This document shows, piece by piece, positions 24,664 to 27,968 of a stretch of 57,007 nt of DNA. Location of the stretch: positions 1 to 57,007 of IMG/VR virus record IMGVR_UViG_3300028599_000005; one strand, written 5' to 3'. Every line of letters begins with the position of its first letter. The stretch's first letter is position 1. Origin of the DNA: a virus. Its lineage: Duplodnaviria; Caudoviricetes. Made by a program: the position numbers and the translations under genes. A model generated the notes under the pieces. The model saw nothing but the letters and a program-made list of their open reading frames with translations, was not told the origin of the DNA and ran no database searches.

Positions 24664-25002
24664 TTATTTTTCCTGTGGTTGAGACATTTTGAAAACGTTG
24701 CCTACAAGCCGCCTGCCATACTCGCGGCGCTCATCGATTCCCATGTCGCGCACGGGATTGGGTTCCTCGGTAAAGTCGTCGCACCAGCACTCGGCGCGTA
24801 GCCATGTTGCGGGCAATTTGATGAACTGGCGCTCGGTCCCGCGCTTTTCCGCCGCATATTTCTTTCGGCCCTCTACAAGCTCATCCAGCGAGGCAATCCT
24901 GCGCGCCTGAACAAACGCCTTTCTCGCATCGCCACGGGCCTCCTTGCGCGGATAACCCCCGTCGCCGTCGCCGTAATACCAGAGATCGAATTCGTCGCTC
25001 AT
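24664..25002 (-). CDS. Replisome-organiser C-terminal-like domain protein
   Basis: YPRKE...ARKAF...FIKLPATWL. Confidence 0.6.
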   Translation of the reverse strand: MSDEFDLWYYGDGDGGYPRKEARGDARKAFVQARRIASLDELVEGRKKYAAEKRGTERQFIKLPATWLRAECWCDDFTEEPNPVRDMGIDERREYGRRLVGNVFKMSQPQEK

Positions 25003-25355
25003 GACGCCTCCCGCAACGGCTTGTAAACACGAATCCCGGCCTGCTCGGCGCGCGCTACCATATCTGCCGTGCCCCTTCCCCCTGGAAAAGCCACGACCAG
25101 TTCCGGCTTGCCTTCGTCGAGCATTTTCTGGTTACGGATAGCCCCCGCCGACTTGCCAAGCAATTTCCAGTCGGCGGGAAATTTCAGGTTCTCGATACGG
25201 TTCTTGCGCGCCCAATATCCGCCTATCCGGTCGGCTCCACGGGCATCGCCTTCAATCACGACGTCAATACCCTTCGCCTTGTGCAAGGCATCCAGCGCCC
25301 GGTACGCCATATCCGTCCGGTCGAAGTCCCTGCCGCCGCATACCAGGATTCTCAT
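24999..25355 (-). CDS. SLOG family (DUF2493/YspA-like) protein
   Basis: ILVCGGRDF, EGDARGAD, AGAIRNQKM, AFPGGRGTADM. Confidence 0.85.
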   Translation of the reverse strand: MRILVCGGRDFDRTDMAYRALDALHKAKGIDVVIEGDARGADRIGGYWARKNRIENLKFPADWKLLGKSAGAIRNQKMLDEGKPELVVAFPGGRGTADMVARAEQAGIRVYKPLREAS

Positions 25356-25681
25356 TCCGCCGCACCCCGAATGTAACGATGCTCGACTGGAACCCCGGCC
25401 TTTTTGGCTGCCTTGATTCCATCTTTCATGCCATCCGATATGCCGTTATCCGCATAAACAGCGGTTAATTCCGCGACCCTGCACCAAGCCAGCCCGGCAT
25501 TGATTCCCCACCAGCGCTCTTCCTTTATTTCATCGCGCAGAATGCCCGGTTGCGTGTAAAGCAGGTGACTCGCAATTGGCGCTTCACCGCGTTCAAGCGA
25601 ATCACGCACGCAAGCGCGGCCATATTCTGTGTTTTGCTCGATATTTCCGGCATAAGGGCTTTCAATGATGACGAGCTTCAT
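25352..25681 (-). CDS. Nucleoside deoxyribosyltransferase-like small protein
   Basis: IESPYAG...GEAPIASHLLY...GISDGM. Confidence 0.6.
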   Translation of the reverse strand: MKLVIIESPYAGNIEQNTEYGRACVRDSLERGEAPIASHLLYTQPGILRDEIKEERWWGINAGLAWCRVAELTAVYADNGISDGMKDGIKAAKKAGVPVEHRYIRGAAE

Positions 25682-27660
25682 TCCGCCGCCTCCGCGAATA
25701 GTGGCCCATGCGATTTCGGTGGATCCCGGTGTCGCTGTTTGACCGATGCCGAATGACGGCCCTCGCCGGCCAGCCAGGCCAGGCGCTCGCGGATATCGGC
25801 CTGGTATTCCGGCTCGGCCTCGATCAGCACGGCTCGGAAGCCCTCGGCGATGGCGGCGATGCCGGTGCTGCCCGACCCGGCAAACGGGTCGAGGATCAGC
25901 CCGCCCGGCGGGGTGACGAGCCGCGCCAGCCAGCGCATCAACGCCACCGGCTTGACCGTGGGGTGTTTCGAACCGAACCGGTCTTCCGGGCCAGCCTTGG
26001 CGGAATAGAAGAAGCGGGCGGCGGTGCCGGAATCGCCAATCCTGAAACCCTTTTCGCCGACGCCAATGCCGTTGAAACCAATTCCAGTTGTGCCGTCATA
26101 AGCGCCGCCCGGCGTATGTGGTCGGACGTGACCCGCGCCGTGCATTCCCATCCGTTCTGATTCCGCCGCGAACGCCGCCTCGACTTCCTCGCTGCCGTCA
26201 TGGCAGACATTGGCGGGCCAGCGGCCTTCGTCGCCGCCGCGCACATTCGCCCGATCATCCCGCCCATAGATGGTTCCATTTACACCTGATTGCCGAGCCG
26301 TACTTTCATCCGTCGCCACCCGGCACCCGTCCACATTCACCGCGCCCGTCCCGTGGCGCAGGACGTTGGCGGCGATGGTTTTCTCGGACAGCGGCTTGCG
26401 GGCGAGGACGATCAGTTCGAAGCTAGGCTTTACGCCCTCGGCCCGGCAATCTTCTGCATCCTGCAATAAAGCAGGCCCGGTCGCAGAAAGTGTGAGGGTG
26501 TGCTGCAACAATGACAGCGAGGCGTTGAAATGGCTTTCCGCAGTGGAAGCATTTGCATGGAACCCACCGGTCAGGCTGCTTGCCTTGATGATGGAGTCGG
26601 CTGTGATCCGCGACAGTGAGAAGTTTAAGGTTTTCCAGTCGATTGTCGTTCCTGATGCCGTTTCGATGATGGACGTGTTCGCTGGAATCAAGGCTTCTTC
26701 CAATGTGCGCCGCCATGACGACACGATGCTCAAGCTGATAGTCGTCGCCAACTCGAATTGCGACATATCCATCCCTGCGCTCAAACCGGCCCGTGTATTG
26801 GTGGCGTCGTCGGCAGTCCATTGAGCAATAGCGGACGCCTCGGCGAACCCGCTTTGGCTTGACGTTGAATTCTGTACCGCAGCTTTCACAAATGACAGCA
26901 ACCATAACCGGGCCTCCAATCGAATTAAGCTTGATAGGATTATACCCTGTTCGTGCTTCAAAGGGAACGGCTTTACAGCCAATACAACTGATTCCCAGGC
27001 GGGCTTAAGAGCCGTGCCCCAGCCCTGCCAGCGTTCGGCCTCGGGCGTGGCGGGAGCGGTGATATTAGCTTTTCGCTGCGCGGCATCATCCTCATGCATC
27101 CAAGGGCGGTCCCAACCAGCATTCTGCGATGCAAGCCCTTTTTCAAACCGAGCGGCTTTCACTTCGTCAAATCCAACAACCTCCCGCTCCGCGCCCGCCG
27201 CCTTGTCGATGCCCTTGCTCACGTCATGTGATTTCGGGAATCCTTGGCCAAACAGCCAAGCAACCGTATCGCGTATCTCAAACCCGGCATCCTCGATTGC
27301 ACATGCCTGCCGGTGCCAACCGCGCGTGCCGCCGAAGGCCAGCAGGTGCCCGCCGGGTTTCAGGACGGCCATGGCCAGCGCCCAGGTTTCGGGGTCGAAA
27401 GCGATGTCGCCGCCGTCCCACTGCTTGCCCATGAAGCCAGTAGCAGCGCGTGCATGTGGCGATTTGCCCTGATTGAAGGTCTTGCGAAGTTCAGCGTTCT
27501 TGTAAACGTCGTCCGCTGTCGCATTCCCGAAGCGTTTGACGATGCTGGTGAGGTGGTAGGGCGGGTCGGTGACGATGGAGTCGACTTGGACTCCAAGATG
27601 CGCCATCAATCGCATGGCGCGGCGGCAATCGCCGGGAATCAGGCGGACACGGTTTCTCAT
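25678..27660 (-). CDS. DNA N6-adenine/N4-cytosine methyltransferase (beta class) with 192-codon insert
   Basis: [29 protein letters not shown]. Confidence 0.9.
26423..26905 (-). CDS. HNH endonuclease with Cys zinc fingers, nested in another frame of the MTase
   Basis: EHRVVM...[16 protein letters not shown]; CxxC/CSxxC at both ends; GGAGG RBS 7 nt upstream; TATAAT at 26944-26939. Confidence 0.88.
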
Positions 27661-27968
27661 GTCTTCATCTCGTAGCTCTCGAACTTCCGCCCGGCGAAAA
27701 TGATATTCACCAGCCGATTATTCTCCTCCGGGTCTCGCGATATCGGACCCTGTTTCGTGGGGATTTTCCCAAGGGCGTGGCGTGTCCGTTTCCTTTTATT
27801 TTTCGCGTCCGCATACATCCGGTCCATCGTCTCGCGAACTTCCAGACATAATTGCTGGTATTCGTACTGCACCGCGCCTTGCGTGCAGCCAAGCGCGCTC
27901 GCGATATTCCGGTATGAAACGCCTTGGCAGCGCATCCGAATGAGAATGTCGATTTCCGTTCGCTTCAT
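27657..27968 (-). CDS. HTH-containing hypothetical protein
   Basis: GVSYRNIASALGCTQGAV. Confidence 0.55.
   Translation of the reverse strand: MKRTEIDILIRMRCQGVSYRNIASALGCTQGAVQYEYQQLCLEVRETMDRMYADAKNKRKRTRHALGKIPTKQGPISRDPEENNRLVNIIFAGRKFESYEMKT

Follow-up and report, generated by a model that had tools for sequence, protein, structure and literature searches.

We analysed a locus in the uncultured 57-kb IMG/VR virus record IMGVR_UViG_3300028599_000005, which has a GC content of about 59%. The whole stretch that was analysed, positions 1 to 57,007 of this record, is referred to as the window in this text. On the minus strand, the window carries an open reading frame (ORF) of 660 amino acids (aa) for a predicted DNA methylase that contains an in-frame insert, and a second ORF, for a predicted HNH endonuclease, lies inside this insert in another frame of the same strand. 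The main features of the locus are:

25678..27660, minus strand: predicted DNA methylase ORF, 660 aa, beta-class N6/N4, read straight across the insert (ORF list, Pfam, PHROG, Foldseek)
26998..27660, minus strand: methylase part 5' of the insert, aa 1-221, ending ...GTALKPA (alignment with insert-free homologues)
26422..26997, minus strand: in-frame insert of 576 nucleotides (nt), W222-S413, boundary set by convention after ALKPA (alignment with insert-free homologues)
25678..26421, minus strand: methylase part 3' of the insert, aa 414-660 plus stop, with the target-recognition region and the S-adenosylmethionine (AdoMet)-binding motif (alignment, PHROG)
26968..27009, minus strand: strand motif copy 1, L218-P231, with LKPA owned by the host and the following 10 residues supplied by the insert (sequence, alignment)
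26392..26433, minus strand: strand motif copy 2, V410-P423, with VKPS supplied by the insert and the following 10 residues owned by the host (sequence, alignment)
26423..26905, minus strand: predicted HNH endonuclease ORF, 160 aa plus TAG, with N- and C-terminal Cys4 zinc fingers flanking the HNH core (Pfam, PHROG, homology, structure model)

A methylase gene with an HNH gene in another frame

The 660-aa ORF scores 84.6 bits against PF01555 (N6_N4_Mtase, cut-off 26.7) in two separate stretches, and the PHROG methyltransferase models match only residues 71-220 and 409-634, leaving the middle blank. The motif order is that of the beta class, with DPPY at residues 32-35 followed by FAGSGST, the FxGxG AdoMet motif, at residues 593-599. 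When the AlphaFold2 (AF2) model was compared with known structures by Foldseek, the best matches were M1.HpyAVI (TMt 0.77), RsrI, M.BceJIV and CcrM, and the alignment spans the insert. By its motifs and predicted fold, the ORF is a beta-class N6-adenine or N4-cytosine DNA methyltransferase, whose activity and target base are predictions.

An earlier reading, made from the letters alone and called the sequence-only reading here, had noticed that a methylase motif occurs twice and that the methylase frame stays open in between. Both observations hold. The two copies of the strand motif, at 27009..26968 and 26433..26392, are 192 codons (576 nt) apart, and the ORF list has the methylase frame running through all 192 codons of the insert, whose length is a multiple of three. 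Alignment with insert-free methylase homologues, which that reading had proposed, revealed that the insert is absent there and the motif single. Because the motif is duplicated, the boundary of the insert is uncertain by up to about 14 codons. The GC content drops to 0.54 in the insert (measured at 26450-26900) from 0.60-0.70 in the methylase flanks, which fits a foreign origin.

The hidden ORF is in the +2 (or -1) frame relative to the methylase (27660-26905 = 755 = 2 mod 3). It matches HNH_3 (PF13392) with an E value of 9.9e-12 and 44.7 bits (cut-off 24.8), and 13 of the 16 PHROG families that match it are annotated as HNH endonuclease. The residues H60, H79, H80, N88, N92 and H101 are invariant in 63 HNH sequences, as are the Cys pairs. 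Its AF2 model has a mean predicted local distance difference test score (pLDDT) of 90.2 and finds I-HmuI as best Foldseek match (E 0.048, probability 0.97), while a sequence search of the PDB with the HNH protein gave nothing but a chance-level zinc-finger row (E 0.075). The stop codon TAG (26425..26423) overlaps the codons for P412-S413, so that VKPS of copy 2 is encoded over the 3' end and stop of the HNH gene. The sequence-only reading had thus correctly described a complete 160-aa zinc-finger HNH in a shifted frame with its stop at the second KP. The part of the insert outside the HNH ORF amounts to 92 nt on the 5' side and none on the 3' side.

That reading had also found no intein termini, and we agree. 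The insert begins with Trp (or Phe) and ends with ...VKPS before Phe, lacking a Cys/Ser/Thr start and a His-Asn end, and Pfam finds only methylase families, with no Hint or splicing domain, in the 660-aa protein.

An 8-base-pair (bp) direct repeat, GTAAAGCC, is located at 26969..26976 and 26426..26433 on the minus strand (identified from the sequence) and encodes V-K-P both times. The sequence-only reading had placed it correctly, but the spacing of its copies is 543 nt rather than 576 nt, and by our own arithmetic chance alone would produce about three repeats of this length in 618 nt. The repeat would be the signal for ribosomal bypass, in which ribosomes hop from the first GTA-AAG-CC to the second in a very long version of the T4 gene 60 hop. 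In phage T4 gene 60 the gap is short, the codons for take-off and landing match, and a stop follows take-off directly. Here the copies flank 543 nt, ten times the distance of the known T4 gene 60 hop, and no stop codon follows the supposed take-off site. In addition, a hop works whether or not the skipped part contains stops or has a length that is a multiple of three. With a repeat at chance level and no stop after take-off, we rejected bypass, to which we attach hardly any probability.

The open host frame among relatives

A protein search with the methylase yielded 8000 scored matches, the best 120 of which were examined. Among these, 91 of the 119 non-self proteins span at least 90% of the query in a single alignment (our own count). 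In an alignment of 96 of the proteins retrieved, the insert is present in 91 and absent in 5. Since these proteins had been ascertained as long ORFs, the survey was redone on DNA. Conserved methylase peptides served as seeds for a first DNA survey of 160 loci, and these loci, the phage loci of MISSy, Kanye and Cr-LKS3 (a Cylindrospermopsis phage) and the window were searched by tblastn with both methylase halves and the HNH. This gave 121 insert-free genes and 11 complete genes with an HNH at the site of the window insert (site A). The methylase frame is open in 11/11 of the latter and the HNH is in frame +2 in 11/11, although the search was blind to ORFs.

A second DNA survey with the HNH as seed led to 80 viral loci with GC contents of 0.27-0.69. 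The frequent host-frame stops in homologous inserts that the sequence-only reading had named as telling against it were not found: in 79 of the 80 loci, the HNH region is free of stops when read in the methylase frame and has 1-25 in the third frame. The relative frame of the HNH is identical in 79/80 as well, and the open span takes in both methylase halves in 69/80. Four loci failed this coverage of both halves for trivial reasons, namely truncation at the locus end (L226, L234), a match running beyond the natural stop (L206) and an open span beginning just within the N-terminal match (L231). The loci are mutually related and include some duplicates; there are 67 distinct complete HNH ORF sequences among them. 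The sole HNH of the 80 that is not embedded (L236:2001-2480) is a free-standing gene upstream of a methylase gene, with 12 stops in its +1 frame. This order recalls the Tiff81/Sashimi arrangement described in the available text of PMC11855218.

The relatives come from a cyanophage, one metagenome-assembled genome of a genome collection (labelled Deltaproteobacteria), a Kribbella genome and many metagenomic viral contigs. Judged by homology, the element is widespread beyond actinophages. Of the public phage records, 16 span 80% or more of the HNH query, and they label the region only as methylase or methyltransferase, or in one case as hypothetical protein. The hidden gene is missed in all of them, which is a lesson for annotation.

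An open frame opposite a second gene could arise by chance, and we compared it with several expectations. Seven free-standing HNH relatives have 3-13 stops in the equivalent frame. When the HNH codons were resampled from the usage of their own methylase exons, 0-6% of the sequences were open per locus (11 loci; 1% for the window). Shuffling of the HNH's own codons left 0.4-74% open at site A, but this is a weak null, since the codon set itself avoids NNT before AA/AG/GA. The single copy in the window is not decisive for openness beyond chance; the family is. Across the family, the comparison shows that the open host frame is selected.

The peptide encoded in that frame is another matter. Compared in pairs, the inserts have amino acid identities of 0.55-0.94 (HNH frame), 0.32-0.86 (methylase frame) and 0.30-0.83 (third frame), and nucleotide differences between inserts are highest at position 3 of the HNH codons. 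This substitution pattern shows purifying selection in the HNH frame only. Identity in the methylase frame is barely above that in the third frame, and the loop peptide therefore appears to be a passenger that is constrained only against stops. The AF2 model of the methylase draws the loop as helices, with mean pLDDT values of 61-92 for blocks of 10 residues. We considered the loop as a genuine domain and rejected this; the helices are most likely an artefact of alignment or composition, because the host-frame peptide is conserved no better than the unselected third frame. A comparison of four-fold sites in the HNH and the exons had also been considered as a test of extra host-frame constraint. 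It was dropped in favour of the three-frame identities, as horizontal transfer of the insert confounds it.

The open frame also bears on the possibility that the insert, with the HNH gene in it, is an unrecognised self-splicing RNA, be it a degenerate intron resembling group I or a new ribozyme, and that the frame is open incidentally. Phage group I introns commonly carry HNH genes. One phage group I intron with an HNH gene is reported in the available text of PMC3428280, and the insert begins with sequence similar to that immediately 3' of the site, which is possible in group I introns according to PMC11855218, likewise in its available text. However, an intron needs neither a length that is a multiple of three nor a stop-free host frame, yet 79/80 loci have them. 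Rfam 15 detected no intron family at E <= 10 in 25500-27900, where no Rfam family at all was found even at E = 1, and none at the gathering score across the window. Outside the HNH ORF there are just 92 nt at the 5' end and none at the 3' end, and this 92-nt leader is conserved at the amino acid level with synonymous change, which is not RNA-like. RNAweasel and MFannot gave nothing on ShiLan, a phage with a published counterpart of the insert discussed below (PMC11855218, available text). Self-splicing is therefore very unlikely in our judgement. The sequence-only reading had listed a tolerated loop, ribosomal bypass and cryptic splicing side by side. Of these, the tolerated loop is favoured, because the other two could do without an open frame of 3n length.

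Expression, spread and the fate of the methylase

Two candidate signals precede the HNH start inside the insert of the window:

26939..26944, minus strand: TATAAT, a -10-like hexamer, 39 nt 5' of the HNH ATG (sequence)
26913..26917, minus strand: GGAGG, a Shine-Dalgarno (SD) sequence, with a 7-nt spacer to the HNH ATG (sequence)

An SD core stands before the HNH start in 61/80 loci against a background of 12%, and a complete GGAGG in 39/80 against 1.5%. A -10-like hexamer lies at exactly -39 in 32/80 loci. A full sigma-70-like promoter inside the insert is present in 31 of the 80 (background 1.9%), the window not being among them, and its -35 element often falls within the K-P-L-T codons that end copy 1. 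These counts show a conserved SD inside the insert, together with a promoter in many members. Two terminator-like hairpins in the window scan, one of them at 26981-26968, are below the shuffle mean of 3.0.

These start signals argue for independent initiation and thus against a -1 frameshift in the leader that would fuse the N-terminal half of the methylase to the HNH, so that the endonuclease is made as a fusion. The HNH is indeed in the -1 frame, which in the window extends without a stop for 33 codons 5' of the ATG and reaches much further in L003, L004 and L084. In other members a stop precedes the start closely, either immediately (L006), by 4 codons (L005) or as a TGA 15 codons upstream (MISSy). 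In view of the upstream stops and the conserved SD and start, we rejected the frameshift fusion, which is about as implausible as the ribosomal hop.

Next to its own start signals, the insert has its own history. In 15 pairs of loci with an HNH identity of 0.90-0.97, the mean identity of the exons is 0.69, and at four-fold sites the same 15 pairs differ by 0.15 in the HNH versus 0.54 in the exons. MISSy, which has the insert, and Kanye, which has none, differ in frame by 579 nt. Inspection of their alignment by eye shows near-identity over ~375 columns at the start and ~265 at the end, with a diverged tract surrounding the insert, as would be expected from co-conversion. At the level of sequence divergence, these comparisons show that the insert spread horizontally relative to the host gene.

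What remains of the methylase is best seen at the duplicated strand. In copy 1, which 73 insert-bearing loci allowed us to compare, Glu is found in 73/73, Ala in 70/73, Lys in 72/73 and Pro in 70/73, with synonymous codon variation, while the Arg occurs in just 9/73. Copy 2, compared in 53 loci, has Arg in 53/53 and Lys in 50/53, whereas its acidic position is Glu in 24/53 and Asp in 20/53. The same motif in insert-free genes has Glu in 120/120 and Arg in 115/120. The two copies retain complementary residues, Glu in the copy from the insert and Arg-Lys-Pro-Leu in the copy of the host. Because the copy 1 residues are invariant while their codons vary, in a leader that the HNH ORF does not overlap, selection must act on the translated host frame. 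The AF2 model places a strand at residues 221-229 of copy 1 (mean pLDDT of the block 221-230, 87).

It is also conceivable that the insert-bearing methylase is inactive or dispensable and that its frame is kept open to avoid polarity on downstream genes, or that the insertions are recent. The loop is long (192 aa), the AF2 model is of low confidence at copy 2 and at residues 437-552, and the methylase is non-essential in relatives of ShiLan (available text of PMC11855218). On the other side, of the 91 insert-bearing proteins in the alignment, 90-91 keep the DPPY positions and 90 keep F and G of FxGxG. The Glu, Ala and Lys-Pro of the insert strand are retained under host-frame selection, as described above. 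Nor can the insertions all be recent, since the HNHs have diverged to 41-78% identity with the frame still open. We regard an inactive or dispensable methylase as improbable, if less so than a self-splicing RNA.

Taken together, the comparisons point with high probability to a homing HNH cassette that sits in a conserved beta-strand motif of a phage beta-class methylase, in the -1 frame, and is translated through as a tolerated loop. The sequence-only reading had already proposed that an element of the homing type avoids disrupting its host gene through overprinting and not through the splicing of an intron or intein. This finds support in the lack of intron and intein matches, the selected open frame, inserts that are more alike than their hosts and the MISSy/Kanye tract. 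The HNH would be made separately, either from a transcript that starts internally or because ribosomes initiate at the internal ATG or GTG that follows the SD. Alleles that lack the insert would be cut by it at the motif or close to it, and would acquire the cassette through repair. Ribosomes on the methylase would read straight through and produce an enzyme with a loop of ~190 residues whose sole sequence need is the lack of stops. The insert copy of the strand (Glu, Ala, Lys-Pro) would complete the catalytic half and the host copy (Arg-Lys-Pro-Leu) would resume the chain, so that the enzyme stays active. We lean slightly towards this fuller version, in which a self-expressing cassette of sigma-70-type promoter, SD and HNH ORF brings its own copy of the beta-strand, the methylase is active with a passenger loop of ~190 residues and the two strand copies share the work.

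Several observations weigh against the homing cassette or limit what the window itself contributes to it. For the window and for every other member, the reading rests on sequence comparison and predicted structure. A search of sequencing runs for this stretch listed no RNA run; it did list one DNA run, which may be the source of the sequence. The nearest insert-free proteins align with the window methylase at 62-68% identity and no near-identical insert-free allele was found for it, so that homing is deduced from the relatives. In the own-codon shuffle, 59% of the window sequences are open, and openness is not significant for the window alone. The locus counts are not independent events, as the loci are related. 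The TATAAT and the GGAGG ribosome-binding site that the sequence-only reading had named are both present (at -39 and with the 7-nt spacer), but the hexamer has a poor -35 partner, TTCCCT; because this matches at just 3/6 positions, the consensus promoter scan of the window calls no promoter at the HNH. The SD core is absent in 19/80 loci. Copy 2 (residues 408-424) has pLDDT values below 50 and residues 437-552 are also modelled with low confidence, so the AF2 model is unable to demonstrate an intact fold. Finally, there are exceptions to the continuous frame: a stop interrupts the leader of L165, L221 and L223 (GC 0.27) have a host frame that is broken 5' of the HNH, and in L173, L220 and L242 the C-terminal part resumes in another frame further downstream. 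The HNH region of L221 and L223 has 0 stops in the methylase frame versus 24-25 in the third frame, but the N-terminal half may be separate or lost.

If the homing cassette is real, being translated through would join introns and inteins as a third general route by which a homing endonuclease gene can occupy a conserved motif. This lifestyle would be common in phages of several bacterial phyla and not an oddity of mycobacteriophages. An open host frame and a spare strand would let a selfish endonuclease gene persist in a conserved enzyme motif without splicing machinery.

Gene neighbourhood, further insertions and known systems

The genes around the methylase are phage replication and nucleotide-metabolism genes according to PHROG. 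The genes on its 3' side (24664-25681, minus strand) are joined via ATGA-type overlaps:

25352-25681, minus strand: nucleoside 2-deoxyribosyltransferase-like protein (PHROG match)
24999-25355, minus strand: 'GTP-binding domain' family gene (PHROG match)
24664-25002, minus strand: replication initiation protein fragment (PHROG match)

Site A is not the only insertion site in this methylase family. At a site B, after FPKSHxVxK and in place of a variable region, HNH-like ORFs are found at L025:2916-3566, L039:2907-3413 and L093:3030-3581. They use the +1 frame, and 3/3 have an open host frame; shuffles are open in 0-0.04% (own codons) or 0.02-0.9% (exon codons). L025 and L039 match Pfam HNH_3 at scores under the cut-off, and L093 does not match it. 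The protein P0005 has N- and C-termini near-identical to those of the window methylase and carries a site-B insert in place of the one at site A. At a site C, directly before HSTVKP, L074:3481-3894 is an HNH_3 ORF (E 2.9e-19) in frame +2 with an open host frame; this openness could be chance, as 25-53% of shuffles are open.

Other members are arranged differently. At L068:1647-3554 the methylase is split into ORFs of 224 aa and 242 aa with a free-standing HNH-like gene of 179 aa between them and 5 stops in the host frame, which is an alternative, gene-splitting solution in the same methylase family. L008:2785-4000, on a contig shared with L210, has the hidden HNH and in addition a long in-frame insert at WVYG↓C...GN↓SGFPKS (arrows mark insertion points), which by its sequence looks like a true intein. 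Insertions of 250-860 nt in the C-terminal (target-recognition) region were seen in L213, L183, L197/L199, L173, L220 and L242. Some are in frame and open, others shift the frame, and L213:3134-3292 has a second HNH-like match in another frame. In the Kribbella genome (L112:3750-4390), the HNH insert and copy 2 are followed by ~640 nt of additional in-frame sequence with a high content of Ser, Thr, Pro and Ala. Altogether, the methylase looks like a hot-spot for mobile inserts.

Among known systems, mobE in nrdA of Aeromonas phage Aeh1 is reportedly a free-standing homing endonuclease gene that splits its host gene into two ORFs. Systems of this kind share with the window an endonuclease gene within a host gene without intron or intein, and L068 is split likewise; in the window, in contrast, the host gene is unsplit and its frame continuous. 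I-HmuI, the group I intron-encoded HNH homing endonuclease of phage SPO1, and I-PfoP3I, another such intron-encoded HNH enzyme (PMC3428280, available text), represent selfish HNH genes that sit in conserved phage genes and spread by cleavage and repair, as presumed for the window. Unlike these, the window has no ribozyme, the host frame is uninterrupted and nothing indicates removal at the RNA level. Inteins resemble the window in being in-frame inserts in conserved motifs that are translated with the host, and their endonuclease may occupy another frame: actinophage inteins with out-of-frame or antisense endonuclease genes are described in the available text of bioRxiv 10.1101/2025.01.02.630785. 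Nothing in the window suggests excision at the protein level.

The closest counterpart is the 'ShiLan domain' of mycobacteriophage DNA methylases (Gosselin et al. 2023, PMC9957025), within which a hidden out-of-frame HNH has been described (Arsenault, Gosselin & Gogarten 2025, PMC11855218). According to the available text of these papers, the arrangement is published for ten or so mycobacteriophages, all carriers infecting Mycobacterium, as a computational description that leaves the mode of expression open. The window HNH is 41.1% identical to ShiLan gp65 in a tblastn comparison over query residues 2-158 of 160 (98%; E 4e-29; NC_041988, 44593-45096). It also matches MISSy, Murica, Bipolar, Pollywog, Mantra, Starcevich and others, in all of which the annotation says just methylase. 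Like the window, the ShiLan domain has a PF01555 host, an insertion site ALKP↓xFEPIVxARKP, an insert of 3n length that is stop-free in the host frame, a third-frame HNH with flanking zinc fingers and its stop at the very end of the insert, and no signature of an intron or intein. In both cases the insert opens with ~11 residues that resemble the 11 downstream of it; the motif in ShiLan and MISSy reads ALKPS↓YEPVCVA(V/M)KP...↓FEPIVVARKP, with site and duplication as in the window. The insert differs in length, with 192 codons in the window versus 202 in ShiLan and 193 in MISSy. By sequence, the arrangement in the window is thus already known in kind, a new copy of a ShiLan-type element from a different type of phage, and the high novelty implied by the sequence-only reading does not stand.

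There are also differences. The HNH of the window starts at an ATG with GGAGG and TATAAT, whereas the available text of PMC11855218 reports no detectable ribosome-binding site and proposes that initiation is leaderless, at a GTG located 18 bp inside the insert; the word 'promoter' occurs 0 times in it. ShiLan has a second in-frame GTG 78 nt downstream, which is preceded by GGAGG and aligns with the N-terminus of the family; in MISSy a TGA separates the two GTGs. The carrier here is an uncultured virus and not an actinophage, unlike the ShiLan carriers. Our literature searches on 'ShiLan domain' and on out-of-frame homing endonucleases with methylases found no experimental follow-up. Pacc40 gp60, a divergent methylase, has an HNH that lies out of frame at another site (PMC11855218, section 3.6, available text). 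It is a second, unrelated hidden endonuclease ORF in an in-frame methylase insert, much as HNH ORFs occur at sites B and C here with the host frame open, and it differs from the window in site, relative frame (+1 at site B) and HNH lineage. To what is in print, our analysis adds the breadth of the distribution, selection for an open host frame, expression signals within the insert and the complementary copies of the strand.

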